From: an uncultured Deferribacteres bacterium
Lineage (GTDB): Bacteria; Zhuqueibacterota; JdFR-76; BMS3Abin05
DNA length: 64,000 nt
NCBI GenBank assembly: GCA_964579725.1
Contig: CAZOHG010000004.1
Location: 17,675-81,674 of the forward strand
Direction of reading: 5' to 3'
Part shown: piece after piece, positions 3,003-20,515 of the stretch
Numbering within the stretch: position 1 is the first letter of the stretch
How the letters are laid out: each line of letters starts with the position of its first letter
Translations under genes and position numbers: made by a program
The notes under the pieces: model-generated
The model's database searches: none
What the model saw: only the letters and a program-made list of their open reading frames with translations
Told to the model about the DNA's origin: nothing

Positions 3003-3352
3003 GGGGGCGCCCTGGGTTCGACGGGATTGGAAAGAGACAGGAACGGCATACCGTGGTCTCCGACCCCACGTAAAATAGCCGGAACACAAATGTAAATGCA
3101 GACTACAACTACGCTCTGGCTGCTTAATTAGCGGTCACGTTCCCCGAGCCGAGACCTGCATAGGCTCGGTGGAGCGTCGCAGCTGCAGGTGCTCCTGACA
3201 AATTTCCGGGATTGTCAGGCTAAGACCACCGGATAGACCTGTGTGAGGCTTTGTCTGTTGAGCCGCCACAGGCGACACTAATCAACAGACTATGTATGTA
3301 GAAGTTCTTGTCGGCTCTTTCCCGGACGCGGGTTCGATTCCCGCCGCCTCCA
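3003..3352 (+). ncRNA. ssrA: tmRNA (transfer-messenger RNA, SsrA)
   Basis: The 5' end GGGGGCGCCCUGGGUUCGACGGGA pairs with the 3' end GCCGCCUCC-A as a 7-bp acceptor stem including one G-U. The T-arm GGACGCGGGUUCGAUUCCCGCCGCC is tRNA-Ala-like. The internal tag-peptide reading frame ends ...ADYNYALAA-UAA. Total length is about 350 nt. Confidence 0.9.
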
Positions 3353-3362
3353 CTAAAAAGCC

Positions 3363-3732: not shown

Positions 3733-6700
3733 TTGGAAAACATGTTACTGGACAGTCGCTATTTTGTGGAGAAGAAGATAGGTGAAGGGGGCGACGGACA
3801 GGTTTTCAAGGTGTTGGATCGGGTGACGGGAGAAATCAGGGCGTTGAAATTGCTTAACCCGGACAGAATTGCGCCGGACGATCTGACCTTTTTTGAGCGA
3901 GAATTTCTGAACGTCAAGAAGCTAACCCACCCCAATATCGTTAAAGTCTATGATTTCGGCTTTCAAAAGGGCAATTACCCCTATTTTACCATGGATTTCG
4001 TCGACGGTCCTGCGTTCACTGATTTCTTTTCCAGGCCGTTTGACCCCACGGCTTTTGTAAAACTGACCGCTGAAATTTGCCTCGCTTTGGACTATTTACA
4101 CAGCCACAACCTGATTCACAGAGATATTAAACCGGCCAATATTTTATTAAGCCAGGAAAACGCCTCGCAGCTACCGGTGCCGGTGCTGACCGATTTCGGA
4201 TTAGCCGAGGATTTTGCGCTTTCCGAATTCGATCCACGGGGCGGCAGCCATTTTTACGTTTCTCCCGAAGCTATTCGGGGCTGGAAAATCGACCCACGCG
4301 CCGACCTGTACTCCCTGGGTGTGACCCTCTACGAAGCTCTGACCGGCCAAAAACCCTTCACGGCAGATAATCCCATTGACGTGCTCAAGCAGCATTTGCA
4401 CAGGGTTCCGGAAAATCCCTCCGCTTTACGGGAGGATCTGCCCCCGGAAGTGGATCAACTGCTCCTGAAATTGTTGGAAAAAGATCCGTCCGCACGGTAC
4501 AATTCCGCACTTGAAGTGCTTCACGACGTCATTCGGCTGGCCCCCGCGGATGTGCCAGTCCCCAAGCTGCACGCCTCAACCCGCATTTGGGGTGGAGCCT
4601 TTGTGGGACGCAAAAAGGAATTGAAATACCTCCGAGATATTTTCGACACGACACGCAGCTTGCAGCGGTTTTCCTTTGCGGTCATTTCAGGTGAAAAGGG
4701 TGTCGGGAAAACGCGGCTCGTACGGGAATATTCCACCCAACTTCAACTGGAGGGTGTCAAGGTTTTCTTTGTGGAAAGCGCCTCCACACGTCACGTCCCC
4801 TACGGGCTCATCTTGGAAATCATTCGGCAAATCGGCATTTCCGCACCCGGTGGAGTGGAATTGACCGGCGACGAGCAGACTGTTTGGCGAACCATTTTTC
4901 AGCACGGTGGCACGCAGCAATCGCCCGACATTTTTAAAGACCAGGCCCAGGTATTTGACATCCTGGGGCGGCTCCTGCAAAAATTTGTACGAGCTATTCA
5001 AAATGCCGACCCCAAACAAAAAACGCCCTTACCGCTTCTCGTTATTTTGGATGATTTTCAAGAAGCGCCTTCCGTAATTCACCAATTTTTCCGCTACTTA
5101 TTTTTCAATGTTTGGAATACCAATCTCCTCTTTTTAGCCACCGCTTCCGGCGACCTTTCGAACCTGGAACAGATTTACGAGACCGTTCGTTCGGAGAAAT
5201 ATTTCTATTGGAACGTCTTGCAGTCCTTTGATTACGGCGGATTCCGGCAATTTCTGTCCAAAAAATTCGCCGACTTCCAGAACTTTGACGACTTGGCAAA
5301 CGATTTGTACCAGTACACGGCCGGGAATCCCTTGTACACGGAACATCTGCTCCAATATTTTGTGGATCGAAATTTAATTGCCTGGGAAGATAACCACTGG
5401 ACGTGGAAAGGGCTGCGCGGAGGGGTCGATTTGCCCGGGGCTATTTCCGACCTTTTTCGAGACCGCTGGAAAGAGTTCTCACACGCTGCCCGCGACGTTC
5501 TGAAAGCACTTGTTTTTCAAGGAGATGTTGTTCCTCTTGCTTTTCTCAAAGCCTATTTTGAAGGGAGCCACACCGACTGGCAGGCGGGTCTGGAAGAATT
5601 GTTGCGGGAAGGTCTTGTTTCAAAAATTCTTCGGAACGGCGCTGTAGTGCTTCAGATTTCCCAACAAAGTTGGGGGGATTTTGTCCTTTCGACCACCCAT
5701 TCGGTAGAAAAAAGAAAAATCCACGAGCACTGGCTTTACGTCATTGAAGATTTGCACCTCGAAATCCCGAAAGACTATCTGGCACCCCTGGCGTACCACG
5801 CTTTAGAAAGCCACCACTGGGAGAAGGCACTTCACTATTTACCCCAAGCAGCCGAATACGCGCAGGCGTTGTTCGATTTGGATCACGCCATTGAATTTTA
5901 CGAAAAATTTCTCTCTCTTTCCAAAAACACGCCTCTCTCCGATCGCCTACCTTTCCTGGAAAAATTGGCTGCGGCGTACGAGTACAGCGGCCAGTTGGCC
6001 AAAGCCCTGGAGGTATCGGATTCTGTTCTTCAAGAAATAGGCGAAAGCGACGCGGAAAAATCGGTTGCTTGGAATTGGCGGTATCGAAAGGTGGAACTCC
6101 TCCAAAAATCGGGAGAGATTCAGGCGGCACTGGATCTTTTGGAGGGACAGCGCTCGGAATGGGAATCCCTTTCCCCGGAACAAAGCGCCCGTGGTTTTTA
6201 CGAATTGGGCTGGCTGTACCGTCTTTCAGGAAAATTTGAGGAGGCATTTGCCCAATATGCCCGGGCAGTGGACTTGTTTTCTCAAATCGAGGCCCAAAAT
6301 GACGTGGCGCTTACTTACAATCGAATGGGAGTAACACACCTTGTTCAGGGAAATTTGGAGGAAGCGGAAGAGGCGTTGCAACGGGCGCTGAGTATTTTTG
6401 AGGAATCCTCTCACTTGCGAGGGTTGGCACATGTTCACAACAATTTGGGCATTTTGTACCGCCAGAAGGGCGAATTAAATCTGGCTCAAAAGCACTACGA
6501 AAATTGCTTGAAAATTCGCCGCGCCACAAAAGACATTACCTATTTGCCTCAGGTATTGAACAATCTGGCCAACTTGCAGTTTTACCACAGCGAGTGGGAA
6601 AAGGCGCTCAATTCCTACAAAGAAGTCCTGCGGATTGCCCAGGGACTGGGTCTTGCGGAAACAACAGCCGGTGTGTTGGAAAATATCGGGCGGTTACAAT

Positions 6701-8952
6701 TTCATCTCGGCCAAGTGGAAGCCGCTCACGAAGCGGCTAAAAAGGCGGTTTTGCTCAATCGCCGCCTTGAAAATTACGAAGGGCTGGCCACTGTTTTTGA
6801 ACTTTTGGGCGATATTCACGATTTGCACGAAAATTACCGCCTGTCACAGGGATTTTATTTCCGGGGGTTGCGAATTTTGGAAAAAACCCAAAACCAACCG
6901 GCTCAAATTCCTTTGCAGTACAAATTGGGCCGTCACTTTTTGCGATTGGGAGAAAAACAAAAAGCGCTGGATTTTTTCATTCGGGCCGAAGACTTAAGCC
7001 AAATTCACCGGCTAAGGGAAGAACGCGCCGAAGTGGCGCTTCAGATCTTGCGTTGGGCGTTGCGCTACCACGACCACCAGCGGGCGGAATATTATCGCAA
7101 TTTTCTGGAAAATAATCTTCCCGCTCTGAAAAATCCCCTGCAGCTCGGATTGGCTTACAGGCAATTGGGACACGCGCGGCAAAAAAACGACGAACCAGCC
7201 CGAGCGCTTGAGAATTTCGAAAAGGCTCTGGAAATTTTTGAGAAAATTTCGGCTTCTGTTGAAATTGCACGTACCGAAAGCGCTCTGGGTAGCTTTTTCT
7301 TAGCCGCCGAAGAACACGAACAAGCCCATTTACATCTGAAAAAAGCTGTCCAACTTTTTCAGAAACTTCCGGCTCGCAACGAACGTCTCCGAATTACCCA
7401 GCAATTTCTGACCGTCCAGGAGCAATTAATTTCCAAATTGGGACAAAATCAGGGTGTTTCCGGCCAATTGACGGTTCTGCAACAAACCAGCCTCATTGTC
7501 CATTCCATTTTCGATCTGGAAACCATGCTTCACAACATTATGAACACGGTCATTAATTTGCTCAAAGCCGACAAAGCGGCCATTATTTTTCTGAATAAGC
7601 AGAGTGGCGGTCTGGAAGTAAAGGTGAGCCGGGGAATGGAGGAAGCAACCATTGAAGACGCCATTCGCATCAGCCAATCGATTATTCAGCGGGTGGAAAA
7701 AACAGGCAGTTCGGTTCTGTCGCGAAATACGCTGGGAGACGAGCGCTTTCAGCACAGCAAAAGCGTCCGCAATTTCCAGATTTTCTCCCTCATGTGTGTC
7801 CCGCTTAAAGTAGATGACCGCCTAATCGGAACCGTTTACGTGGACAGCCGCAATCCGGAACGAATCTTCGGCTACCGCGATTTGGAATTTTTGGAAAATA
7901 TTGCCGATCTGGCCGCTGTGGCGATTAGCAATTCCGAATATTACGAAGAATTGAAACGAAAGCAAAAGAATTCGGAGCTTGAGGCTCATCTGCCACAACC
8001 TGAGGAAAATCGCCTGACATTCAACGAAATGGTGGGGACGAGTCAGCCAATGCGCGAGATTTTCAATATTGTGAAACGCGTCCTAAATAAAAATGTGGAT
8101 ATTTTGATTCGCGGCGAAAGCGGAACGGGAAAAGAAAAATTGGCTGCCTTGATTCACTTTAACAGTAATCGAAAAGAGCGTCCCTTTGTAACGGTCAATT
8201 GTGCTGCCATCCCCCCTACCCTGCTCGAGAGTGAACTTTTCGGTATTGAAAAGCGCGTGGCAACCGGCGTGGATCGACACATCGGGAAATTTGAACAGGC
8301 AAACGGCGGCACTATTTTTCTGGATGAGATCGGAGACATGAGTTTGGAAACGCAGGCGAAAATACTCCGGGTCATTCAGGAGCGCGAGTTCCAGCGAATC
8401 GGTGGTTCCAAAATCATTCGAATTGACGTTCGGATTATTGCCGCGACAAACAAAAATTTGGAAGAAGCCATCCGGGAACGCACATTTCGACAGGATTTGT
8501 ATTACCGTCTAAACGTGCTGCCCATTGTCGTCCCACCTCTTCGAGACCGGAAGGAAGACATTCCCCTTTTGGTTGAATATTTTATTCGCAAGTACAATTC
8601 GGGGCAATTGGTAAAGATTACCGATTCAGCCATGCGCTTACTGTACCGGTACGATTGGCCGGGGAACGTCCGCGAACTGGAAAATGCCGTTCAACGAATG
8701 CTCATTTTTACGGAAGGGGATCGCATTACGGTTAGCGCACTGCCGCCTGAAATTCAACAATTTATGCCTCACGGAGTTCCTGCCGATGCTTTGGGGAGGT
8801 TGTCCCTTCGGGATTTTGAGCGAGAGCTTCTGTTGAAAAGTTTGGAAAGAAATCACTGGAATATTTCCAGGACGGCCCAGGCGCTGGGGGTGCACCGAAA
8901 CACCTTGCACCGAAAAATGAAGCTTTTTCAGATTTCCAAACCGGGTGTCTAA
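3733..8952 (+). CDS. multidomain signalling protein: Ser/Thr protein kinase + AAA_16 ATPase/TPR module + GAF + sigma-54-interaction AAA+ domain + Fis-type HTH
   Basis: Kinase motifs are present: GEGGDGQV, ALK, HRDIKPANILL, DFGLA and SPE. A Walker A GEKGVGKT (AAA_16, PknK/MalT-like) follows, then about 500 aa of TPR-like repeats and a GAF-like region. The enhancer-binding AAA+ core (GESGTGKE, ...GGTIFLDEIGDM..., VRIIAATN) and a C-terminal HTH (ISRTAQALGVHRNTLHRKM) complete the protein. An RBS-like GGAAAGGA lies upstream. Confidence 0.85.
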   Translation: MENMLLDSRYFVEKKIGEGGDGQVFKVLDRVTGEIRALKLLNPDRIAPDDLTFFEREFLNVKKLTHPNIVKVYDFGFQKGNYPYFTMDFVDGPAFTDFFSRPFDPTAFVKLTAEICLALDYLHSHNLIHRDIKPANILLSQENASQLPVPVLTDFGLAEDFALSEFDPRGGSHFYVSPEAIRGWKIDPRADLYSLGVTLYEALTGQKPFTADNPIDVLKQHLHRVPENPSALREDLPPEVDQLLLKLLEKDPSARYNSALEVLHDVIRLAPADVPVPKLHASTRIWGGAFVGRKKELKYLRDIFDTTRSLQRFSFAVISGEKGVGKTRLVREYSTQLQLEGVKVFFVESASTRHVPYGLILEIIRQIGISAPGGVELTGDEQTVWRTIFQHGGTQQSPDIFKDQAQVFDILGRLLQKFVRAIQNADPKQKTPLPLLVILDDFQEAPSVIHQFFRYLFFNVWNTNLLFLATASGDLSNLEQIYETVRSEKYFYWNVLQSFDYGGFRQFLSKKFADFQNFDDLANDLYQYTAGNPLYTEHLLQYFVDRNLIAWEDNHWTWKGLRGGVDLPGAISDLFRDRWKEFSHAARDVLKALVFQGDVVPLAFLKAYFEGSHTDWQAGLEELLREGLVSKILRNGAVVLQISQQSWGDFVLSTTHSVEKRKIHEHWLYVIEDLHLEIPKDYLAPLAYHALESHHWEKALHYLPQAAEYAQALFDLDHAIEFYEKFLSLSKNTPLSDRLPFLEKLAAAYEYSGQLAKALEVSDSVLQEIGESDAEKSVAWNWRYRKVELLQKSGEIQAALDLLEGQRSEWESLSPEQSARGFYELGWLYRLSGKFEEAFAQYARAVDLFSQIEAQNDVALTYNRMGVTHLVQGNLEEAEEALQRALSIFEESSHLRGLAHVHNNLGILYRQKGELNLAQKHYENCLKIRRATKDITYLPQVLNNLANLQFYHSEWEKALNSYKEVLRIAQGLGLAETTAGVLENIGRLQFHLGQVEAAHEAAKKAVLLNRRLENYEGLATVFELLGDIHDLHENYRLSQGFYFRGLRILEKTQNQPAQIPLQYKLGRHFLRLGEKQKALDFFIRAEDLSQIHRLREERAEVALQILRWALRYHDHQRAEYYRNFLENNLPALKNPLQLGLAYRQLGHARQKNDEPARALENFEKALEIFEKISASVEIARTESALGSFFLAAEEHEQAHLHLKKAVQLFQKLPARNERLRITQQFLTVQEQLISKLGQNQGVSGQLTVLQQTSLIVHSIFDLETMLHNIMNTVINLLKADKAAIIFLNKQSGGLEVKVSRGMEEATIEDAIRISQSIIQRVEKTGSSVLSRNTLGDERFQHSKSVRNFQIFSLMCVPLKVDDRLIGTVYVDSRNPERIFGYRDLEFLENIADLAAVAISNSEYYEELKRKQKNSELEAHLPQPEENRLTFNEMVGTSQPMREIFNIVKRVLNKNVDILIRGESGTGKEKLAALIHFNSNRKERPFVTVNCAAIPPTLLESELFGIEKRVATGVDRHIGKFEQANGGTIFLDEIGDMSLETQAKILRVIQEREFQRIGGSKIIRIDVRIIAATNKNLEEAIRERTFRQDLYYRLNVLPIVVPPLRDRKEDIPLLVEYFIRKYNSGQLVKITDSAMRLLYRYDWPGNVRELENAVQRMLIFTEGDRITVSALPPEIQQFMPHGVPADALGRLSLRDFERELLLKSLERNHWNISRTAQALGVHRNTLHRKMKLFQISKPGV

Positions 8953-9082
8953 CCAACTTTGAGTACCATTGGAACTGGCTGGCATCGGAAGAGGAGTAAA
9001 AATGGGGGTGGCCACCTCAATCGGCACCCTCACGCGGAAACCGGCCTCAAAGAGCTTACCTCAAAATGAAAAGGCTGACACA

Positions 9083-9102
9083 GTGCACCATTTCTCGTGC
9101 AT
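9083..9102. promoter_or_regulatory. palindromic site 1 (GTGCAC-N8-GTGCAT), candidate activator-binding upstream site
   Basis: TGCAC-catttctc-GTGCA is an inverted repeat lying about 200 bp upstream of the -12 element. Confidence 0.3.
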
Positions 9103-9150
9103 CTGTTTACCCCATTAATAACAATAGGACAAACTCGTACCTCCCCCTCT

Positions 9151-9171
9151 AATGCACTATTTTGGTGCATT
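9151..9171. promoter_or_regulatory. palindromic site 2 (AATGCAC-N7-GTGCATT), candidate activator-binding upstream site
   Basis: This is a perfect 7-bp inverted repeat with a 7-nt spacer. It lies about 130 bp upstream of the sigma-54-like promoter. The half-site TGCAC is shared with site 1, which is about 68 bp away. Confidence 0.35.
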
Positions 9172-9280
9172 GTCACTTTATTTTCACAATTTCCTTTTGA
9201 AAAACAGTTACACTTATTTTAGTATCTGATTAATTTTTAAAGAATTAGTCCCTGCCATTCCTTTCGACATTGAACATCAA

Positions 9281-9296
9281 TGGTATTATTTTTGCA
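9281..9296 (+). promoter_or_regulatory. sigma-54 (RpoN)-type promoter candidate, -24/-12 elements
   Basis: TGGTATTATTTTTGCA matches TGGCAC-N5-TTGCA. The conserved GG and GC dinucleotides have the correct 10-nt spacing. It sits about 45 nt upstream of the repeat-protein start codon. Confidence 0.45.
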
Positions 9297-9340
9297 AATT
9301 AAAAGTTGTTATTAATCATTAACTTGGGAGGATGGTGAAC

Positions 9341-9703
9341 ATGCGCTCTTTGATCAAAGTAGCGGTGGCGGCCATATTAGTAGCCCTACTGATCGGAACC
9401 GTTCAGTCAGGTACCTACGCCAGTGGCCCCAGAGACATCCCCGTGGGTGGTATTATGAGCGGCCCAAGGGACATTCCAGTCGGCGGCATTATGAGTGGTC
9501 CGCGCGACATCCCGGTGGGCGGCGTTTGGAGTGGCCCTCGTGACATCCCTGTCGGTGGGATCGCCAGCGGACCCCGTGACATTCCGGTGGGCGGAATTGC
9601 CAGTGGTCCCCGCGATATTCCGGTCGGTGGCATCATGAGTGGTCCCAGAGACATCCCCGTGGGTGGTATTGCCAGCGGCCCGAGGGATATTCCGGTCGGC
9701 TAA
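9341..9703 (+). CDS. Sec-secreted small protein consisting of a signal peptide followed by 7.75 tandem 12-aa repeats (SGPRDIPVGGI[M/A/W])
   Basis: An RBS GGGAGG lies 9 nt before the ATG at 9341. The signal peptide is MRSLIKVAVAAILVALLIGTVQSGTYA. The mature part is made only of repeats and ends with a truncated repeat, SGPRDIPVG-stop. Confidence 0.75.
   Translation: MRSLIKVAVAAILVALLIGTVQSGTYASGPRDIPVGGIMSGPRDIPVGGIMSGPRDIPVGGVWSGPRDIPVGGIASGPRDIPVGGIASGPRDIPVGGIMSGPRDIPVGGIASGPRDIPVG
9422..9700 (+). repeat. 36-nt coding tandem repeat array (7 full copies + 27-nt partial)
   Basis: The copies are identical at the amino-acid level but differ at roughly 25% of nucleotides. Almost all differences are at synonymous third positions (Pro ccc/cca/ccg/cct; Arg aga/agg/cgc/cgt). 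Confidence 0.85.
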
Positions 9704-9834
9704 ACGAAGTCGACATTTATTTTCCCTCAGGCAGATTTTCATTCGTTTGCATGCAACGGATGTCATGAAGCTTTTGGCTGAGGGGGTTGAGACTGTATCT
9801 CAATCCCCTTTTTTATTTTTTAGGAAACAATGCG

Positions 9835-10191
9835 ATGCCAGGCAATCCGTACAAAATAAATTCCAGATCGGAATACATTTCAAAAAGAATGTCCACGAGT
9901 CTCTCCGTTATTGCCTATGTGCCCAAAAATAATCACGGGGATGTGCGGCAACTGATTATGGATATTTTTCGCCGACTTTCCCTCGAGCCCAGATACGCTG
10001 GGACCGTTTCTTTCGGATTCTTGGAAATTCCCTGCAACGAATGTGATTCCGACCCGCTGATTGACCAAATTGACCCGCAAGATTTGCCCAAAATTGTAAT
10101 TTACCGATCCGGGGGAAGTTCCGTTTTTGAGATTGAAAACATCGAGTTCCAGAAAATTAAAGTAGCAATTGACTTGGCTCTCGAGCAGTAA
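9835..10191 (+). CDS. hypothetical small protein, thioredoxin-fold-like without CxxC
   Basis: The ORF is 9787..10191, with a likely ATG at 9835 after AGGA. The beta-alpha-beta-alpha pattern (VIAYVPKNNHGDVRQLIMDIF...DPLIDQIDPQDLPKIVIYRSGGSSVFEI) parallels the thioredoxin/KaiB-like fold. KNNH sits where CGPC would be. Confidence 0.35.
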   Translation: MPGNPYKINSRSEYISKRMSTSLSVIAYVPKNNHGDVRQLIMDIFRRLSLEPRYAGTVSFGFLEIPCNECDSDPLIDQIDPQDLPKIVIYRSGGSSVFEIENIEFQKIKVAIDLALEQ

Positions 10192-10219
10192 TAGAAAACC
10201 ATGCCAGAGGTGGTGGAGT

Positions 10220-10579
10220 ATGAAGTGGTGGGAGATTTACAGCGAACGGCAATACGTCCAATTGCGAACATTCCATCGACCCAAGATTTTTATTTGGTAT
10301 TCCGGACGACTTCCCGACCGCCTTCAAAATGAACTAAGGGTCATTTTTGAAAACGTGGAATACGAATATCGGGAAATCGCCAATTTTATTGTCTCCTTGG
10401 TTCATGTCGATCGGGACCCTGAATTGCAGCAGCTTTTTGGCTTTTTAAATCCAACACCGAAGGGACTTTTTTTGACGGGGTATTCGTCCCAAGGAACCAC
10501 ACTCTTTAAATGCAACGAGCTTTCGCCCAGTCAATTGAAAATGTACATCCTCCGTCTGCTTGCGTCTTCACAAAACTAA
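10220..10579 (+). CDS. hypothetical small protein, thioredoxin-fold-like without CxxC (paralog-like of the upstream ORF)
   Basis: The ORF is 10169..10579, with a likely ATG at 10220. KIFIWYSGRLPDRLQNELRVIFENVEYEY...DPELQQLFGF...KGLFLTGY aligns with the thioredoxin pattern ILVDFWAEWCGPCK...NPGTAPKYGI...PTLLLF. SGRL replaces CGPC. Confidence 0.35.
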   Translation: MKWWEIYSERQYVQLRTFHRPKIFIWYSGRLPDRLQNELRVIFENVEYEYREIANFIVSLVHVDRDPELQQLFGFLNPTPKGLFLTGYSSQGTTLFKCNELSPSQLKMYILRLLASSQN

Positions 10580-10839: not shown

Positions 10840-13839
10840 TCACCGGATCACCGCAAATTTTTGCACCGCCAGAAAAGGATGTTTTCCCTTCACCTGCAAG
10901 CGCAAAAAGTAGATTCCTGCCGGAACGGTACGAGAGTCGAAGACTTTATCCGACCAGTGAAATTGGTAGCGCCCCGTGGGTTGCCTTCCTTGTGTCCAGC
11001 GGGCTACTTCTCTACCCAGAACATCGAATAGAACTATTTCCACGTTCCCCGGATATGCCAATTGGTACACGGTGGTTAGCGGTCTCCCTCCTGTGGCAGG
11101 ATTTGGATACACCGGTTGCAGAGCAAAGTGGGAGGGCGATACGGATTTTGCTCCGGGCACGCCCAGGTTTTCCGAACCTGCGAGGAAAAACAAATCCAAC
11201 TGCCCATCCAGATTCACGTCCAGGGCGTCAAACTTGCCGTCAAAATCGACGTCGATTCGGTCTAAAACGCCGTCGCCGTTGGTGTCGAAGGCGTCGTAGG
11301 TTCCGTCGGCGTTCAAGTCCACGGCGTCCGGGATGCCGTCGGCATCCAGATCGCTGAGCACAAGATCAATTTTCCCGTCCTCGTTGGAATCCACCTTGAC
11401 CAGGGTGTAGCCCAGCGAATCGCCCGAGGCGGCGTACAGGAATGTGTCAAACTTTCGATTGCCGTTGGAATCCAACAACAAAATTTCGGCCACACCGTCA
11501 CTGTCGGGATCGCTGAGGGCAAAAAAGGTCTCGGTCGTGTCCTGTACCGCCCGCTTTTGCAGCGGGTGCTGCCCGCCGATCGTAGGCGGAATCTTCGAGG
11601 TGTCCACCTTGTAAATGCCTTTTGCCTGATCCACCGGAACCAACGGAATAATCTGATCCGGAATGCCTCCCACAAATCGGGATGTCCACGAGCGGCGGAA
11701 CCAGCTCCAGTTTCTGGAATCCTTATTGAACACTTTGCCGCTCACCACAATGTATTTTCCCTGCCCATCTACATCCTCTAACACGGTTCCAATCTGTCCC
11801 ACGCCCTGTACGGTAATGACCCGGTCCTTCACAATTAGAAGGTCTGTTTGCGGGGGCGGCGGATTGGGTATGTAGGTCGTGTTTTCCTTTCGAACGCGGT
11901 ACAACTGCCCTTGTGCCGAGATAAATTTGGTCACATTTTTAATGCCTGCTTTCAACGTGCCTGTAATCAAATCCGTACTGTAGACCTTGGAAATAATGCC
12001 TGTTTTGTCCACCTTTTCAATCAGTTTCCCGACTCCCTCCATGGCATTGATGGCGCCCTTTTCCTGCTCACCTATCAGCGGCGGATTGTCTCGCACATCT
12101 TTTCGCGTGAACAAAACACCCGCTTTGTTTTGCCCCGGTGCTTTGTACACCGCCAGCCCGTTTTGCTCTTTGCTCAGTTGAAAATCCGCCGAAAGCGACG
12201 GACACTTTTTTTGCCGAAGAAATGTGTTGAGTGTGTCGGGAGGGTTTGCCACCAACTGATTCATTCGTGCCGCAAAGGCGGCGGAATCGTAATCAGTTTG
12301 AATGAGACCGTCTAATTGGGTGTTGACCAGCCAATTCAGATCCTGACCGGAATTCAACCAATTCAAAAGTTGCGTGTTGTCGCCAAAAGCAGAGGCCAAA
12401 GCGGAAAGAATCCCCTGAGCGGCAATTTGGTTAAATACCTGACGAAACAATTCGGCTTTTTCCTCGGGAGAAGCGTTCTGCAAGCGTTGCCTCAACGTGT
12501 CCACCGCTTGTTCCGAGAGGGCATTTAAGGCATCCGACGCCGCCTCGTCCTGCAAAAGGGAATCGCTCCGGGTCAATTCCGGCTTCTTGTAGCCCGGGTC
12601 GAAGGGATCCAGCGGATTGGTGCCGTTCAACACTTCGGTACCGTCCAAAATACCGTCGCCGTCGGTGTCGGGATTGTACCGATCGGTTCCCCAGACGCCT
12701 TCCTGACTGTTAATCAGGCCGTCCAAATCGCTGTCCGCGTCCTCATCGTTCGGATCCGTTGACATGTAGGGATCAAAAGAAACGGCGTAATTGGGATCCG
12801 GCGAAGTGTGAACCCCCAAAATGACGCCGTCAGCCGAGCGTGTTTGGTTAAAATCAAAACCGGACCCGGCTTTTTCAAAGGTAAAGATGTGGGGTCCCCG
12901 GGCGCCGCCCCAGTAATTCCAGGTAAAATCACTCCATTTTAGAAGTTCATTGCTCACCCAGAGGCCAACTGCGGCATTGACAAAGGAACAATGGTTGATG
13001 TAAACCTCGCCGCCGGATGTGTCCTCGATCGCCAGAGCAAATCCCCCTTCCCCTTCAAACCGGCATTTTTCGATGCTGACCCGGCGGGGATATTGAATAA
13101 AAAAGGCCTTTTTCCACAGGTGGGCCAAATCCTCAAAAGGACAGGTAAACATACCGCCAAAATTCCAGCTGGTGACCAACGGGTAGTAGAAGTAAAATTT
13201 CGTCCCGGTCACGGATACTTCGTCTGCGGCAATAATGGCTCCGTAGAGAAGCTCCATCCGACCTCCAACCACCACAAATTTTTCGCTGGAAATATCCAGG
13301 GGCATGTAGTTTGACGAAAGCATTTTCTTGGTTACATCACAATTGTCTAATATGATTTCGGCCGCTTTCGAACCGACACCAGCTCGAATGGACGAGAGGC
13401 TGTCGAAAACGCACCCATGGAAATCGAGTTTGACCTGATTTCCGTACAATAGGGTCACTTCCCCATGCCCGGGCATCGCATGAAAACTGACCTGATTGGC
13501 TTTAAGAACCGAGCGGGAGCCAAGACTAATCCCAAAGGTAACCACCGAACCGGGATCAATCAAAAGCGTGCGACCGGTATCCATCTGGTAATCGCCATAG
13601 GGAGTTGTCGAAACGTGGATGCCGGCGGGCCAATGCAAAATGCCGTCACCAGGTATGCCGCCAAAACGGTCTGTCCCGTCAAGCTGGCCGTCACCGTTCC
13701 AGTCATCATTTTTGTCTTCCTCGAAAAAGCCACTGTGGTACACCGTGTCCGCTTGTGCTGCAGCAAAAAGCCTTTTGTTCGTCCACCCAAAAACAACCGT
13801 TAGGCTAATCAAAATAGACAGAAAAAAACGCATCCTCAT
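10840..13839 (-). CDS. secreted right-handed beta-helix protein with thrombospondin-type-3-like Ca-binding repeats and a T9SS (Por) C-terminal sorting domain
   Basis: There is an N-terminal signal peptide. The central region is a parallel beta-helix (pectate-lyase-like fold), with multiple DxDxDGxxD repeats. The C-terminus ...VYPNPATGG...VEIVLFDVLGREV...AGIYFLRLQ...KFAVIR is a type-IX-secretion C-terminal sorting domain. Confidence 0.75.
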   Translation of the reverse strand: MRMRFFLSILISLTVVFGWTNKRLFAAAQADTVYHSGFFEEDKNDDWNGDGQLDGTDRFGGIPGDGILHWPAGIHVSTTPYGDYQMDTGRTLLIDPGSVVTFGISLGSRSVLKANQVSFHAMPGHGEVTLLYGNQVKLDFHGCVFDSLSSIRAGVGSKAAEIILDNCDVTKKMLSSNYMPLDISSEKFVVVGGRMELLYGAIIAADEVSVTGTKFYFYYPLVTSWNFGGMFTCPFEDLAHLWKKAFFIQYPRRVSIEKCRFEGEGGFALAIEDTSGGEVYINHCSFVNAAVGLWVSNELLKWSDFTWNYWGGARGPHIFTFEKAGSGFDFNQTRSADGVILGVHTSPDPNYAVSFDPYMSTDPNDEDADSDLDGLINSQEGVWGTDRYNPDTDGDGILDGTEVLNGTNPLDPFDPGYKKPELTRSDSLLQDEAASDALNALSEQAVDTLRQRLQNASPEEKAELFRQVFNQIAAQGILSALASAFGDNTQLLNWLNSGQDLNWLVNTQLDGLIQTDYDSAAFAARMNQLVANPPDTLNTFLRQKKCPSLSADFQLSKEQNGLAVYKAPGQNKAGVLFTRKDVRDNPPLIGEQEKGAINAMEGVGKLIEKVDKTGIISKVYSTDLITGTLKAGIKNVTKFISAQGQLYRVRKENTTYIPNPPPPQTDLLIVKDRVITVQGVGQIGTVLEDVDGQGKYIVVSGKVFNKDSRNWSWFRRSWTSRFVGGIPDQIIPLVPVDQAKGIYKVDTSKIPPTIGGQHPLQKRAVQDTTETFFALSDPDSDGVAEILLLDSNGNRKFDTFLYAASGDSLGYTLVKVDSNEDGKIDLVLSDLDADGIPDAVDLNADGTYDAFDTNGDGVLDRIDVDFDGKFDALDVNLDGQLDLFFLAGSENLGVPGAKSVSPSHFALQPVYPNPATGGRPLTTVYQLAYPGNVEIVLFDVLGREVARWTQGRQPTGRYQFHWSDKVFDSRTVPAGIYFLRLQVKGKHPFLAVQKFAVIR

Positions 13840-13995
13840 TACCCTACCTCCTTACACAATCATTGCTTTATTTTCAGCCAGCGTCGTTCACTTGAGCGGA
13901 AAATTGTCCAAATAATGGTCAAAATCATTGGATTGAATAGAAGAAGCAAGTTCCATACCAATTTGGTTCTGAGTAGGCGTGACATCCGGAGGAAA

Positions 13996-14031: not shown

Positions 14032-14034
14032 AAG

Positions 14035-14108
14035 TGGCGGTTCAGGGACTCGAACCCCGGACACGCGGATTATGATTCCGCTGCTCTAACCAACTGAGCT
14101 AAACCGCC
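14035..14108 (-). tRNA. tRNA-Met (anticodon CAU; elongator type, could alternatively be the lysidine-modified tRNA-Ile2)
   Basis: The reverse complement folds as a 74-nt cloverleaf: acceptor GGCGGUU/AACCGCC, D-arm GCUC/GAGC, anticodon stem GCGGA/UCCGC with loop AUCAUAA, T-arm CGGGG-UUCGAGU-CCCUG. G1-C72 is paired, so it is not an initiator. CCA is not encoded. Confidence 0.85.
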
Positions 14109-16015: not shown

Positions 16016-17044
16016 TTACAGAGTAAAGGCCTGAAAATTAGCGTCTTTTTTCAACTTTTCGATCAGTGCTTTGTAGGCGGCTGCCTGTTTTTTCTGTTTA
16101 AGTTGCTGTTTCAATTGGTCGTGAACCTGGCTGAGCGGTTTGGTTTCCTTTTTGCGGTTAATCACCTTTAAAATGTGGTATCCGTAGCGGGTTTCGATGA
16201 TGCCGCTAATTTTGCCCACGGGTGTGTTGAAGGCCGCATCTTCAAAGGGCTTGACCATTCGGCCACGCCCAAAATCTTTGTACAAACCGCCGTTGTCCTT
16301 GGAACCCGGGTCTTCCGAGTATTTTTTGGCCAATTTGGCGAAATCCTCGCCCTTTTTGGCGCGCGCCAAAATGCCCTCCATTTTTTTCCGGATGGCCTTT
16401 TTGGCAGAATCGCTCTTGCCCTGCGTCATGAGCAAAATGTGACGTACGGTAGTGGTTTTGGGTTCATTGTAAGCGGTTTTAATGTCAGCTTCGGTCACTT
16501 CAGTTTCCTTGGCCAATTTTTTGTCCAAATACCGCTGGATGGTCAGGACGTCTTGGATGTCTTTTCGGACGTAATCGGCGCTTACGCCATTTTGCGCCAA
16601 AAATTGCTGGAATTTTTCCTTCCCCCCTGCGCGTTTGTACTGAATGTCAAGTGTGGAGTCAACATCGGCGGGTGTAACGGTGATTCCCGCCTTTTTGGCC
16701 GCTTGCAGTAAAAGACGCTTTTCCGCGAGATTTTCAGCGGTCTGATTCAAAATGGATTTCAGTCGGTCAGCACCAAAGCTTTTCAGTTGGTCAGCCCGAC
16801 GACCGGAACTTTCAACAATGACCTTAATGACGTCCGCTGTGGTCAATTTAAACGAATTGGTCGAAATCAGGACTTTGTTGGTTTTGGGGGAAACGGCCGG
16901 AACCTTTTCGCCAATGGCTTTGGCAAGCTGGTAAGCGGGGGTTCCTTCTTTTAAGGCTTCATTTTTTTTGCCACACGAGGCTAATAAAAGAAGCGCCACT
17001 ACGGGGAAAATGACAAATTTTCTCATGGGGGTTTTCTCCTTCAA
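16016..17044 (-). CDS. peptidyl-prolyl cis-trans isomerase, SurA/PrsA-like parvulin-type lipoprotein
   Basis: The signal peptide ends in a lipobox LLLASCG. A SurA-N-like helical chaperone region precedes the parvulin domain (RHILL...GGLYKDFGRGRMVKPFEDAAF...GYHILKV). Confidence 0.85.
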   Translation of the reverse strand: MKEKTPMRKFVIFPVVALLLLASCGKKNEALKEGTPAYQLAKAIGEKVPAVSPKTNKVLISTNSFKLTTADVIKVIVESSGRRADQLKSFGADRLKSILNQTAENLAEKRLLLQAAKKAGITVTPADVDSTLDIQYKRAGGKEKFQQFLAQNGVSADYVRKDIQDVLTIQRYLDKKLAKETEVTEADIKTAYNEPKTTTVRHILLMTQGKSDSAKKAIRKKMEGILARAKKGEDFAKLAKKYSEDPGSKDNGGLYKDFGRGRMVKPFEDAAFNTPVGKISGIIETRYGYHILKVINRKKETKPLSQVHDQLKQQLKQKKQAAAYKALIEKLKKDANFQAFTL

Positions 17045-17287: not shown

Positions 17288-20200
17288 TTACCGTCGATCG
17301 GGGCCGGGCGGTTTCACAATATTTTTAGGTGGATTTTTTTTCAGTTCCCCCAAAATGTATTGCACAGCGCGCTCCAACATGGGTTCCCGCCCCAGACGAA
17401 TGAGAGTGGGATCATCGAAAACCGGCACATCCGGTTTTACGCCGTAGGATTCCACATCCCAATGTCCCTCTCGGTTTACGTAAGCAAATGCCGGTACGGA
17501 AATGTGACCGCCGTCCACAAAGCGCGGGTTCCAACTGTACCCGACCAACCCGCCCCAGGTGGTTTGACCTATTAAAAGACCCAATTTCATGGTTCGAAAA
17601 TAGGCCGGGAAGGCATCTCCTCCCGAAGACGAACGCCCGTTAATCAACATCACCTTGGGGCCTTCATTGGCAAACATGGGTGTGGTGTACAGGGGCAAAT
17701 TTCGGCGTGCCCAGTAATTCAAAATGGGGTGGGACATGTCAAAAATCATGGGAGCCGGAATGGAGCCGCCACCGTTGTAGCGCTCGTCAATGATGAGCCC
17801 CTGTTTGACATCGGCTTGTGCGTACCACCCTTTGTAAAAATTCTTGAATCCCGCAAACGAGGTGTTGGGAACGTAAATGTACCCGATTTTTCCTCCCGAA
17901 AGGCTGTCCACAATGGCGCGATTGTGTTTCTCCCACTGAAGGTGGCGGAGTCCCAGCTCGGAAGCCACTGGTGTGACAGTAACTTCCCGGGCGCCGCGCT
18001 CGGAGGGTTCCCGGTTCACAAGCAGTTTTACCGCCACGCCTGCTTTGTTTTCCAAAAAGCGGTACGGATTTTCATTGGTGTGAAGAATGTGGCCGTCAAT
18101 TCCAATAAGGAACTCGCCCTCCTTCACGTCCACGCCGGGAAGGGTTAAGGGCGATTGGGTCCCCCTCTCCCAATTTTCACTGGGGAAGATCGTCGCAATC
18201 TTGTAAAATTTTCCGGCCGGTTTCAGATCGCAGCCCAACACGCCCACGGGAATGCGTTTGACGCGCGGCATGTCTCCGGCCATGACGTACGTATGGCCGC
18301 AATTTAATTCCCCAACCAACTCACCAATAACATAATCCAAATCCGCCCGATTGGCGACGTAGGGAATCAGTTCCTCGTATTTGTCGTACATCTTTTGCCA
18401 ATCCACGTGGTGCAGTTTCGGATCGTAGAACCAGTCTTTCATGATCAGCCAGGCGTCGTGGTAAATTTGCTGCCATTCGTCCGATGGAATAATTTTCATG
18501 ACCATTTTTGAAAGATTGAGTTTTCCTGCGCCCGTTTTTTGTTTTGGACGCAGCGGGGCAATGCCAAAGGTTTTACCACTGCTGTACAGAAAGCTTTTGC
18601 GATCGGCTGACAACACGTACGAGGAAATCCCGTTCATGAAAACCATTTCTTTACGCTGTTTCAAATCGTATTTGGTCAGTTTCCCTCCGCGAATGTAGAG
18701 CAAACCGCCTTTTACTCCCGTTAGGCTGCGGTAATTTCCTGTGGGCGTCGGAAAAGCCACTACCCGCCGACTGAAGCCCTCCGGTTCCACCACCAATTTG
18801 ACGGTTTTCTTCGAGGCCTTTTTTCGCGGTCTCTTCTCTTTTTTTTCAGTTGGCGCCGCTTTTTCGTCGTCATTCAACGGGGCGAAAGGCGATTCCAAAT
18901 TTTTGCGCAGCGTGCCCACGTACAATCGGGCGTCAAAGTGATGCGTGCTCCAATTGTAATTGCGTCTGGAGATAAAATACAAATACTTGCCTTCGGGATC
19001 AAAACTGGGGGCGTAATTGTCCTCGGTGTTGTCGGTGAGTTGAAAGGATTTCTTTTGATCCAGCGAATAGAGAAAAATACCGGTCATGTGATTGGGGAAA
19101 TCCTTTGTGTAGGCAATCCAGCGGCTGTCTGCCGACCACCGGGCACCTGAAATCGGGGAATAAATCCCCCGGTCAATTTCTTTTGACTGACCCGACCGAA
19201 GATTAACCAATTGGAGGCGATTTTTCTTGTCCGTTAGCACAATCCATTTGCTGTTGGGCGCCCATTGGTAATCCGTTATCCAGGCGTCCGTGTGACGGGT
19301 CAATTGCCTCGCCGGAGCGTTGCCGTGGTACGGTTTCAGATACAGTTCGTAGGTTCCCGTTTTGTCCGACAGGTAAGAAATCCATTGGCCGTCGGGCGAC
19401 CAATCCACGCTCATTTCGCGAATCCCGCTGGTGTGCGTCAAATTGACAATATCCCCGTGTTTACGGGGCACCGTAAAAATGTCGCCCCGGGCGGAAAAAA
19501 TCGCCCGTTTGGCTGTGGGAGAAAGCGAGAAACTCTGCACAAATTTGGACACATTTTTGTAAACCGGCAAGGCGTGGGGTCTGTCGTCATTAATTTCAAT
19601 GGAGAGCCGACGGACCTTTTCCGTGGCGGGGTTTAAAAAATAGAGGAAACCGCCGTTTTCGAAAACAATGCCACCGCGTCCGCGGCTCGGCCATAAACAG
19701 TCATATTTTTTAAAATGCGTCACCTGGTGGATTTTTTTCGTCCCCAAATCATACGAAAAAATGTTTAACGTCGTGGGTTTGTTGGAACCCACGGCTTCCC
19801 TGTCCGACGTAAAGTAGATTTTGTGTCCCACCCACATGGGGAAATTGTCCGTTCCCGGGTAGTGGGTAATGCGTTCAAGGGTGTTCTTTTTGAGATCGTA
19901 AATCCACACATCCTGCGCTCTGCCGGCTTTGTACCGTTTCCACGTGCGGAATTCCCGGGATTTAATGTCGTACGCTAATTGGGTACCGTCGGGGGAAAGT
20001 GTGGCCGGACCGCCTTCAGGCAGCGGCAGGGGCTGTTCCAATCCCTCCTTGAAGGCGTCGATTAAAAAATAACGGCTCACCCGCCGACCGTAGGGTGTGC
20101 GATTGGAACGGAAGAGAATTTTCTTCCCGTCGGGCGTCCAATCAATGGGAATATTGTCCCAACCACCTCGAGGGGGCATTTGGCCCACATCCGGGTAAAA

Positions 20201-20515
20201 AGTCAGTTGTCGGGGCACGCCCCCCTCGGCTGGCATGACGTAAATCTCACGAGTGCCCGAATATTCCCCCGAAAAGGCGATCCATTTTCCATCCGGAGAA
20301 AATTTCGGGAAAAGTTCCAAGCCGTCAAAGGAGGTGAGTTTTCGGGCAATTCCTCCCTTTAAAGGAGCAATCCAAATGTCGCCCGCGTACACAAAGGCAA
20401 CCTTGTTCCTGTAAATGTCCGGCTGACGAAGTAAACGTCCCTCTTTGGCAAAACCGGTACCCCAACAAAGAAAAAGCAGAGGCCAAATCCACAGGAAAAT
20501 CAGTTTGCGTTTCAT
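17288..20515 (-). CDS. tricorn protease homolog (S41-family peptidase with TolB-like beta-propellers and PDZ domain)
   Basis: The 1,075-aa size is typical of this family. An N-terminal signal peptide is followed by repeated WD40/TolB-like propeller blades (FSPDGKWIAF, WSPDGQWISY...), a PDZ-like segment and a C-terminal S41 peptidase domain. Confidence 0.8.
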   Translation of the reverse strand: MKRKLIFLWIWPLLFLCWGTGFAKEGRLLRQPDIYRNKVAFVYAGDIWIAPLKGGIARKLTSFDGLELFPKFSPDGKWIAFSGEYSGTREIYVMPAEGGVPRQLTFYPDVGQMPPRGGWDNIPIDWTPDGKKILFRSNRTPYGRRVSRYFLIDAFKEGLEQPLPLPEGGPATLSPDGTQLAYDIKSREFRTWKRYKAGRAQDVWIYDLKKNTLERITHYPGTDNFPMWVGHKIYFTSDREAVGSNKPTTLNIFSYDLGTKKIHQVTHFKKYDCLWPSRGRGGIVFENGGFLYFLNPATEKVRRLSIEINDDRPHALPVYKNVSKFVQSFSLSPTAKRAIFSARGDIFTVPRKHGDIVNLTHTSGIREMSVDWSPDGQWISYLSDKTGTYELYLKPYHGNAPARQLTRHTDAWITDYQWAPNSKWIVLTDKKNRLQLVNLRSGQSKEIDRGIYSPISGARWSADSRWIAYTKDFPNHMTGIFLYSLDQKKSFQLTDNTEDNYAPSFDPEGKYLYFISRRNYNWSTHHFDARLYVGTLRKNLESPFAPLNDDEKAAPTEKKEKRPRKKASKKTVKLVVEPEGFSRRVVAFPTPTGNYRSLTGVKGGLLYIRGGKLTKYDLKQRKEMVFMNGISSYVLSADRKSFLYSSGKTFGIAPLRPKQKTGAGKLNLSKMVMKIIPSDEWQQIYHDAWLIMKDWFYDPKLHHVDWQKMYDKYEELIPYVANRADLDYVIGELVGELNCGHTYVMAGDMPRVKRIPVGVLGCDLKPAGKFYKIATIFPSENWERGTQSPLTLPGVDVKEGEFLIGIDGHILHTNENPYRFLENKAGVAVKLLVNREPSERGAREVTVTPVASELGLRHLQWEKHNRAIVDSLSGGKIGYIYVPNTSFAGFKNFYKGWYAQADVKQGLIIDERYNGGGSIPAPMIFDMSHPILNYWARRNLPLYTTPMFANEGPKVMLINGRSSSGGDAFPAYFRTMKLGLLIGQTTWGGLVGYSWNPRFVDGGHISVPAFAYVNREGHWDVESYGVKPDVPVFDDPTLIRLGREPMLERAVQYILGELKKNPPKNIVKPPGPDRR

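Follow-up and report, generated by a model that had tools for sequence, protein, structure and literature searches.

What is the role of a small exported protein that, after its signal peptide, consists of eight copies of one nonapeptide written in divergent codons? This question is raised by an open reading frame (ORF) of 120 codons at positions 9341-9703 of a 64,000-nucleotide stretch of DNA (the window) from an uncultured Deferribacteres bacterium (contig CAZOHG010000004.1); coordinates refer to the plus strand of the window unless noted. Here, we describe the anatomy of this repeat gene, the selection on its units, and the conserved module to which it belongs. The comparison of sequences suggests that the product is a polyprotein-type precursor of a sequence-specific secreted peptide, a reading to which we give slightly less than an even chance.

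A small exported protein built from nonapeptide cores

Translation and Tandem Repeats Finder confirmed the ORF, the signal peptide, and the 7.75-copy repeat that had been described from the letters of the window alone (hereafter, the sequence-only reading). The ORF follows a ribosome-binding site recognizable in the sequence, GGGAGGA (9326..9332), of which ACTTGGGAGGA is kept in all species. Codons 1 to 27 (9341..9421) specify a Sec-type signal peptide, MRSLIKVAVAAILVALLIGTVQSGTYA, with two basic residues in the n-region, an h-region hydropathy of 2.47, and small residues at -3 and -1; cleavage is predicted between A and S in T-Y-A-S. No lipobox was found in this signal peptide. The array itself (9422..9700) comprises 7.75 units of 36 nt, namely seven full 12-residue units and a final 9-residue unit, SGPRDIPVG, with the stop codon TAA (9701..9703) directly after PVG. 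On 9422-9696, Tandem Repeats Finder reported a 36-nt period, 7.6 copies, and 71% matches. The mature chain of 93 amino acids is rich in G (25%) and P (17%; Pro+Gly, 42%), has a net charge of 0 and a 2P+G value of 0.59, contains no Lys, Tyr, or Cys, and is predicted to be disordered.

The sequence PVG followed by TAA forms the C-terminal end of every homolog, and the mature chain begins with a core in clade A and in L008 (see below for the relatives). The unit is therefore parsed as a 9-residue core, [S/Q]GP[R/V]DIPVG, plus a 3-residue spacer, G-(I/V)-x. Most simply, the window array would thus consist of eight SGPRDIPVG cores with seven G(I/V)(M/A/W) spacers between them. If so, the signal-peptidase cut and the stop codon would already yield the N terminus of the first core and the C terminus of the last one.

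In principle, a repetitive ORF could have arisen by chance, lie antisense to the true gene, or result from misassembly of a simple repeat. Within the window, an antisense ORF (9415-9654, minus strand), which shares wobble positions with the repeat gene, is indeed open and encodes a rather regular repeat of its own, with 8 of 12 columns invariant. However, in related species it has a stop codon in every unit and was rejected as a coding frame; since it is broken in this way, only the plus frame is coding. Moreover, five independent contigs from ENA, NCBI, and JGI assemblies, 98.6-99.9% identical to the window, encode the identical 120-amino-acid protein, which excludes an assembly artifact. Five of the five single-nucleotide polymorphisms within the ORF among these contigs are synonymous. 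The existence of orthologs in about seven species with conserved promoter, ribosome-binding site, signal peptide, stop codon, and terminator also speaks against an artifact, as does the extreme surplus of synonymous over nonsynonymous change. We conclude that the repeat ORF is a genuine small gene, known to date from a few uncultured bacteria only, and that its explanation as an artifact or chance ORF is already effectively refuted.

Units invariant in protein and drifted in DNA

The seven full units of the window array have a mean pairwise nucleotide identity of 73% (range, 67-89%), close to but below the approximately 75% of the sequence-only reading. Ten of the 12 unit positions are invariant in protein, one fewer than had been counted, since unit 3 has V at position 11 (GGVW). 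Differences between units number 33, 15, and 156 at codon positions 1, 2, and 3, respectively. Among the 163 codon pairs that differ, 142 do so synonymously, and the 21 nonsynonymous pairs all fall at positions 11-12. All four Pro codons are used in the array, and Arg is encoded by AGA, AGG, CGC, and CGT. In these respects, the earlier description was accurate.

The sequence-only reading had also considered selection against recombinogenic DNA repeats. This idea was not upheld: unit identity at positions 1-10 (0.764) equals that of random synonymous draws based on the codon usage of the window (0.750 ± 0.017), an exact repeat of 27 nt persists (the random mean for the longest exact repeat is 16.5 nt), and sister lineages keep DNA-identical units. 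Active codon scrambling was rejected on the first two of these grounds. The scrambling equals random synonymous choice, with no sign of selection for DNA dissimilarity itself. Furthermore, the window array is not fully scrambled, and some higher-order structure is left. Units 1-2 resemble units 7-8 (89% identity, including the 27-nt repeat), and the Val codons show a perfect GTG/GTC alternation across all eight units.

Synonymous sites of the array are saturated (proportion of synonymous differences, pS, 0.75-0.84). The corresponding nonsynonymous value according to Nei-Gojobori (pN = 0.03) is an artifact of the paths between AGR and CGN Arg codons and reflects no real replacements. Ser is always encoded by AGY, although TCN accounts for 72% of the Ser codons in the host genome, and the rare AGR codons for Arg are enriched, occupying 4 of 8 slots and matching the AGA/AGG of clade B. 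Hence, the codons have diverged from those of one ancestral unit through synonymous changes of one step at a time, with purifying selection acting throughout.

Relatives in two clades with different array behavior

Relatives were sought via the co-conserved downstream gene t1 and a DNA pattern for two consecutive units. Twelve further related contigs representing approximately seven species were found. They fall into two groups: clade A, with the window, L009, L011/L012, and L013 (four species), and clade B, with L001/L018/L020, L007, L014, and L008. The genomes carrying the repeat gene are labeled Bacteroidetes bacterium, uncultured Deferribacteres, or bacterium BMS3. The host is apparently diderm and similar to the Fibrobacteres-Chlorobi-Bacteroidetes (FCB) group, because a neighboring gene product has a type IX secretion system (T9SS) type-A sorting domain, which is a marker of this group.

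At the level of protein databases, the family is new and narrow. The repeat protein had no match in Pfam, NCBIfam, PADLOC, or the PDB sequence search, in agreement with the sequence-only reading, to which no known family had come to mind. A word-indexed search of 5.8 billion proteins yielded one homolog. An exhaustive HMMER search of 1.84 billion protein representatives gave 105 matches with one true homolog (P0008, the ortholog from L008). The remaining HMMER matches were rejected as homologs, since they are unrelated periodic proteins matched on repeat composition. The core peptide string was in no paper found by literature search.

Several of the rejected matches look like eukaryotic multicopy peptide precursors with KR-flanked units, for example, (GKREYPTEGILL)n, sharing periodicity and not homology with the repeat protein. 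Six of them (P0005, P0017, P0019, P0020, P0051, and P0070) are eukaryote-looking precursors with a signal peptide, 6-9 tandem GKR(E/D)YPTEGILL units, and dibasic sites. They are unrelated to the repeat gene and look like an undescribed or little-known multicopy peptide family.

In clade A, the arrays have 7.75 or 8.75 units and are codon scrambled in every species (mean unit identity, 0.72-0.74). Their variable spacer residue is specific to the slot in all of these species, with G-V-W invariably in slot 3 and G-I-A in slots 4, 5, and 7. It follows that the array is older than the clade A species and has been held slot by slot. Slot orthology is undetectable in the DNA (diagonal identity of 0.78 versus off-diagonal identity of 0.76-0.77) because of the saturated synonymous sites, and thus orthology rests on the spacer residues.

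In clade B, the units are identical or nearly so in DNA. L001, L018, and L008 have 2.75 copies and L020 has 5.75; the count reaches at least 4.6 in L014 and at least 6 in L007, whose array contains a scaffold gap. Since L018 and L020, both recovered from a single sample, have a common signal peptide and common flanks, copy number is polymorphic within one species. In L008, V replaces R at position 4 in all units, and the first unit is decayed in L001 (SGLSSISIS-GIT) and L007 (SELNNNFVS-GIA), with length and spacer retained. Several clade B contigs end in or beside the array. In lineages with DNA-identical units (L007 at 8691-8790 and the starts of L014, L015, L016, and L017), the assemblies break at the array or leave a 100-N gap inside it, which hides the true copy number and makes the gene easy to lose from annotations of metagenome-assembled genomes.

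Taken over both clades, the number of copies ranges between 2.75 and 8.75 with an unchanging unit, a check on homologs that the sequence-only reading had proposed. Its view that the pattern is not one of recent slippage holds for the window array and fails for the relatives, which show exactly recent slippage.

Purifying selection on the cores

Comparison between species showed how strictly the peptide is maintained. Between the window and L009, the 72 core codons differ by 42 synonymous and 1 nonsynonymous change, and the 27 codons of the signal peptide differ by 5 and 8, respectively. Between the window and L013, the corresponding numbers are 45 and 0 for the cores and 10 and 7 for the signal peptide. 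Thus, the signal peptide evolves freely between species while the cores are frozen, and the long-term purifying selection on the unit that had been postulated from the window was borne out. In the same species pairs, the flanking proteins are less conserved (regulator, 75% identity; t1, 61-63%; t2, 54-59%). Across clades, the regulator is 58-60% identical with no domain exceeding 75% invariant columns, and the GP-x-DIPVGG segment is identical.

The complete set of core replacements seen consists of R to L in one unit each of L009 and L011, R to V in L008, and S/Q at position 1. The replacement in L011 is polymorphic, since L012 has R. Variation is otherwise limited to position 12, to I/V at position 11, and to the S/Q at position 1.

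A conserved regulator and a putative promoter upstream

In every locus long enough to show it, a regulator gene is located directly upstream of the repeat gene. In the window, this gene (3733..8952) ends 389 nt before the repeat gene and encodes 1,739 amino acids with a Ser/Thr kinase, a STAND NTPase (AAA_16), TPR, GAF, Sigma54_activat AAA+, and HTH_8 domains according to Pfam (PF00158, Sigma54_activat, E = 1.6e-66; HTH_8, E = 6e-14; the TPR_12/TPR_1/TPR_MalT matches are generic). No transmembrane segment was found in the regulator (maximum 19-residue hydropathy, 1.38), and we read it as cytoplasmic. The HRD/DFG motifs of the kinase and the Walker A (GESGTGKE) and Walker B (FLDEIGDM) motifs are intact.

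The intergenic DNA cannot be aligned between species by blastn, yet palindromes, a -24/-12 element, the ribosome-binding site, and the terminator are conserved. The loci have two or three palindromes of the form TGCAC-N7/8-G(T/G)GCA at constant distances from the ATG, at -188/-257 in the window and at approximately -195/-264/-331 in clade B. The distal enhancer-like palindrome, TGCACCATTTCTCGTGCA (9084..9101), lies at -257 to -264 from the ATG in all loci covering the region. The proximal one, TGCAC-N7-GTGCA (9153..9169), has invariant half-sites at -188 to -195 in all these loci and is the sole match within the window. The sigma54-type -24/-12 element TGGTATTATTTTTGCA (9281..9296) is positioned 44 nt before the ATG and is one of two exact consensus matches in the window. 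In seven species, TGG(C/T)A(C/T)-N5-TTGCA is kept 44-51 nt before the ATG, with an invariant GG-N10-GC and a variable spacer (TATTT, TATAA, TGTAT). This layout resembles an enhancer-dependent sigma54 promoter that would be served by the adjacent regulator; together with the synteny, the retention of these elements in otherwise unalignable DNA suggests a dedicated regulatory module.

The second exact -24/-12 match of the window, TGGTATGGAACTTGCT (13945-13960, minus strand), lies approximately 105 nt upstream of a gene for a 999-amino-acid T9SS-sorted protein and has no TGCAC palindrome near it.

The assignment to sigma54 is not secure, because the sigma54-contact loop of the regulator reads RVATGV (codons at 8254-8271) in place of GAFTGA, invariantly in 8 of 8 orthologs compared. 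Changes of the central F and T in GAFTGA usually abolish sigma54 activation (PMC3162934), and homologs of enhancer-binding proteins (EBPs) with defective loops, such as TyrR, HupR, and VpsR, work with sigma70 (PMC3162934; PMC6158489). The RVATGV loop may be a working noncanonical loop, or the regulator may be an atypical sigma70-dependent EBP. A sigma70-like pattern, TCGACA-17-TATTTT (9264-9292), overlaps the -24/-12 element and has the form TCGACA-17-TAT(A/T)(A/T)T across species. The window and the related loci contain no RpoN box, and a literature search on the RVATGV loop found nothing relevant. In a test for covariation with the R-to-V change of the peptide, regulator changes specific to L008 were not enriched in the TPR region.

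A terminator and two redox-dead thioredoxin-fold genes downstream

The intercistronic region between the repeat gene and t1 (9704-9834 in the window) was compared among the window, L001, L007-L009, L011, L013, L014, L016, and L017. In these 10 loci, an intrinsic terminator (AGGGGGTTGAG...) is almost invariant in sequence, has a consensus fold, and is preceded by a small conserved hairpin. In the window, it consists of GAGGGGGTTGAGA...TCTCAATCCCC with a 13-bp stem, followed by a T-tract (9780..9820). Upstream of it, the element CCCTCAGG (9724..9731) contains a nearly invariant CCCT (CCCU) motif, which can pair with the 5' arm of the terminator in nascent-RNA folds of 10 of 10 loci. Based on these folds and on one or two compensatory changes, the CCCU element is a candidate antiterminator, and regulated read-through is possible. 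Rfam gave no match on 8900-10300.

Downstream of the terminator, t1 (9835..10191; 118 amino acids) and t2 (10220..10579; 119 amino acids) encode cytoplasmic proteins without signal peptides, t2 being a distant paralog of t1. With its start codon approximately 15 nt past the T-tract, t1 lacks the space for a separate promoter, and both t1 and t2 apparently rely on read-through. Structure predictions for both proteins gave a thioredoxin fold lacking the CXXC (or CXXS) active site at the N terminus of helix 2. The family alignments of t1 and t2 contain no conserved cysteine; the CNEC of the window t1 sits in a variable loop and is absent from orthologs. Pfam and NCBIfam hold no family for t1 or t2, and only about ten sequence clusters were found in 5.8 billion proteins, always beside the repeat gene.

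The order regulator-repeat gene-t1-t2 is kept in every locus long enough to show it. In most species, this module is followed by genes for a Spy/CpxP-like LTxxQ protein, an extracytoplasmic function (ECF) sigma factor, an anti-sigma factor, and a MucB/RseB homolog. The window lacks these genes, with the convergent gene for the 999-amino-acid protein in their place, and the cluster was therefore rejected as an obligatory partner; the invariant module is regulator-repeat gene-t1-t2. No protease, peptidase, transporter, or modifying enzyme is co-conserved in the neighborhoods surveyed, which comprised the window and the related loci.

Several other features of the surroundings were recorded. The convergent gene (10840-13839, minus strand) encodes a beta-helix/TSP3 protein with a T9SS type-A sorting domain, and upstream of its promoter region is a tRNA-Met(CAT) gene (14034-14108, minus strand). 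Six to 8 kb downstream of the repeat gene, the window carries genes for a SurA-like parvulin lipoprotein (16016-17044, minus strand) and an exported Tricorn-like S41 peptidase with a PDZ domain and the signal peptide MKRKLIFLWIWPLLFLCWGTGFA (17288-20515, minus strand). Both might process or otherwise handle an exported peptide rich in Pro, and neither is syntenic in other species. Further signaling genes, for a double-STAS protein, a GAF-GGDEF protein, and a TPR/HEAT protein, are located at 21758-24800. Immediately before the regulator gene, at 3003-3353, is a transfer-messenger RNA gene with the tag VNADYNYALAA. In L009, the 1-kb spacer between t2 and the spy-like gene (6805-7802) is full of short inverted GC-rich repeats (e.g., GTCCCAAGT...ACTTGGGAC), which resemble repetitive extragenic palindromes.

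Cleaved precursor or intact protein

How might these parts work together? The repeat gene would be the dedicated transcriptional output of the upstream cytoplasmic kinase-STAND-TPR-GAF-AAA+-HTH regulator, which would bind the two or three conserved TGCAC-N7/8-GTGCA enhancers and fire the conserved -24/-12 promoter. The strong conserved terminator would make the repeat gene the main transcript, with read-through, possibly regulated, reaching t1 and t2. The product would be a Sec-exported pro-protein with a 27-residue signal peptide, eight invariant nonapeptide cores SGPRDIPVG, and seven spacers G-(I/V)-(M/A/W). After export, it would be cut in the spacers, freeing up to eight copies of one peptide of 9-12 residues, and this peptide would act as a signal-like ligand recognized sequence-specifically by a partner. 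Four features separate the competing readings: each unit has been frozen individually over long evolutionary times, copy number varies freely even within one species, both ends of the protein fall on core boundaries, and the gene apparently has a sensor-regulator of its own. Polyprotein-type precursors, whose single units are the functional entities, are marked by just such a pairing of per-unit invariance with an unconstrained number of copies, and a freely varying copy number is expected for a dosage element. The same combination also fits multivalent display of one short linear motif.

Several points weigh against cleavage and against the proposed promoter. The neighborhood offers no co-conserved protease, peptidase, or transporter; no cleavage motif is recognizable in the spacer, which ends in a variable residue (A/M/W/T). 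The conservation of GVW in slot 3 across four species is left unexplained if this segment is a spacer and nothing more. As the host is apparently diderm, a released 9- to 12-mer would start in the periplasm. Finally, by published criteria, the RVATGV loop predicts loss of sigma54 activation (PMC3162934).

An extended version of the precursor reading is a peptide autoinduction circuit in a diderm bacterium, made of parts unrelated to the RRNPPA systems of Firmicutes. In such a circuit, the cut nonapeptide [S/Q]GP[R/V]DIPVG would be sensed by the TPR/GAF part of the regulator after reuptake, or via the envelope ECF/RseB module. In response, the -24/-12 promoter of the repeat gene would be activated, and copy number would set the signal gain. 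We regard this circuit as distinctly improbable.

The most serious competitor of the cleaved precursor is a mature 93-residue product that stays whole and acts in the periplasm or envelope, either as a disordered elastin-like chain or by displaying eight identical motifs that cluster or occupy a partner, for example, in an envelope-stress response. We judge it unlikely, though it deserves to be taken seriously. Its composition (G, P, zero net charge) would suit an elastin-like chain, and its 2P+G value is near, if borderline to, the elastomer threshold of about 0.6 or more that Rauscher and colleagues reportedly proposed in 2006. The missing co-conservation of a processing enzyme at the surveyed loci, the slot-conserved spacer residues, and the Spy/CpxP-like, ECF, anti-sigma, and MucB/RseB genes after the module in most species are further points in its favor, although the ECF cluster is separable and missing from the window. 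Elastomeric or bulk-property repeats, however, normally tolerate substitutions, whereas here 9-10 residues are frozen in every unit while other proteins differ by 25-45%, and cross-linking residues are absent. Folded repeat domains do not tolerate threefold changes in copy number; the threefold range seen here and the polymorphism within one species argue against a defined fold or length. That sigma54 regulons often serve the cell exterior (PMC3162934) can be counted for the intact protein. On balance, core/spacer boundaries and per-unit invariance favor the cleaved precursor over an elastin-like uncleaved protein.

Two other explanations shift the function away from a free, unmodified peptide. 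According to one, the gene is a regulatory leader, in which translation or translocation of the repeat peptide, acting as a secretion monitor or arrest peptide, would set terminator formation and thereby control t1 and t2. The almost invariant terminator, its CCCU partner in all 10 loci, and the missing space for a t1 promoter are compatible with this, and conservation of amino acids rather than nucleotides would also fit nascent-chain effects. We nevertheless consider a leader very improbable: an arrest peptide needs neither eight copies nor a variable copy number, and the distance of approximately 80 nt from the stop codon to the downstream terminator stem is too long for a ribosome simply to occlude the stem. 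In addition, C-rich partners of a G-rich stem arm easily arise by chance, no Rfam family matches, and to our knowledge the repeat peptide bears no likeness to the arrest motifs of SecM, MifM, or VemP.

According to the other explanation, which the sequence-only reading had also raised, the protein is a multicore precursor of a ribosomally synthesized and posttranslationally modified peptide (RiPP), with the modification taking place either before or after export. In its identical cores and short spacers, the protein does recall the multicore precursors of cyanobactins and graspetides, and t1/t2 could in principle be peptide-binding partners. The N terminus, however, is a Sec signal peptide and not a leader recognized by a modifying enzyme. 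The core lacks Cys and Thr, its sole Ser is replaced by Gln in other species, and t1/t2 have no catalytic cysteines. The search in related genomes for a co-conserved protease or modifying enzyme, which that reading had proposed, gave none in the neighborhoods surveyed; specifically, no YcaO, radical-SAM, ATP-grasp, lanthionine synthetase, P450, or protease gene is present in any conserved neighborhood. We give a RiPP very little credence, and the RiPP-like reading was not sustained.

Implications

If a multicopy secreted peptide is indeed paired with a dedicated kinase-STAND-EBP sensor, signaling of the Phr type would reach into uncultured diderm bacteria of FCB-like affiliation, where both the receptor and the output logic would differ. 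The candidate ligand, a nonapeptide, is simple to synthesize. Whatever the function, the family offers a clean natural contrast for one and the same repeat protein: codon-scrambled, slot-stable arrays in one clade and DNA-identical, copy-number-polymorphic arrays in its sister clade. This contrast bears on how bacterial genes tolerate or remove repeat instability, and it explains why assemblers break at the locus. Should the autoinduction circuit exist, the two kinds of array would amount to a natural experiment on stabilizing a signal dosage or keeping it tunable. The regulator is of interest as an EBP that has intact ATPase motifs and a conserved -24/-12 target, yet RVATGV instead of GAFTGA.

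Comparison with known systems

Elastin-type repeats resemble the repeat protein in the 42% Pro+Gly, the hydrophobic I/V between turns, and the predicted disorder. They differ from it in that here the mature chain has only 93 residues, the per-unit sequence and not the composition is invariant, cross-linking residues are missing, and the protein apparently has its own regulator. With multicore RiPPs (cyanobactin PatE and multicore graspetides), the locus has in common the repeated cores in one precursor, here eight invariant cores between conserved G(I/V)x flanks, and a copy number that varies between relatives. Unlike them, it begins with a Sec signal where a leader would stand, has no genes for modifying enzymes in its vicinity, and conserves no residue open to modification.

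Yeast alpha-factor, thyrotropin-releasing hormone, and the fungal Kex2-processed dikaritins are made from precursors with a signal peptide followed by many identical short units with spacers. In eukaryotic polyprotein precursors and polyubiquitin genes, units are identical in protein and synonymously divergent, each released unit being selected individually. The repeat gene shares the identical protein units and the divergent synonymous sites, but it is bacterial and has no dibasic KR or other known cleavage motif.

On the regulatory side, the locus is similar to PspF-pspA and ZraR-zraP, in which an AAA+ EBP with HTH_8 adjoins its target, palindromes lie approximately 130-200 bp from the -24/-12 element, and the target is small and exported. 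Here, however, the sensory part is kinase-STAND-TPR-GAF and not a receiver domain, and the target is a repeat peptide and not a helical chaperone. The altered GAFTGA loop (RVATGV here) is reminiscent of the atypical EBPs TyrR, HupR, and VpsR, which use sigma70.

The closest documented system appears to be the Rap-Phr type of Bacillota, a likeness on paper. The locus is no member of RRNPPA, because receptor family, host type, and output differ. Its host is a diderm, FCB-like uncultured lineage and not one of the Bacillota or their phages. Its regulator is a 1,739-residue kinase-STAND-TPR-GAF-AAA+-HTH protein, with no Rap/NprR/PlcR/PrgX/Rgg/AimR-type family among the Pfam matches listed. Output would pass through a -24/-12 promoter, and the core has 9 residues rather than 5-6. 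Nevertheless, the parallels to Rap-Phr of Bacillus and phages are several. In both cases, a small gene for a Sec-exported propeptide, putative here, is located directly downstream of the gene for a cytoplasmic TPR-containing regulator (PMC11343458). A precedent for the precursor reading comes from the Phr propeptides, which are exported by Sec and can contain up to 8 identical copies of the pheromone internally, the canonical one being C-terminal (PMC11343458). Likewise, the repeat protein has internal identical copies with short spacers, a last copy at the exact C terminus, and conservation limited to the segments that would become the mature peptide.

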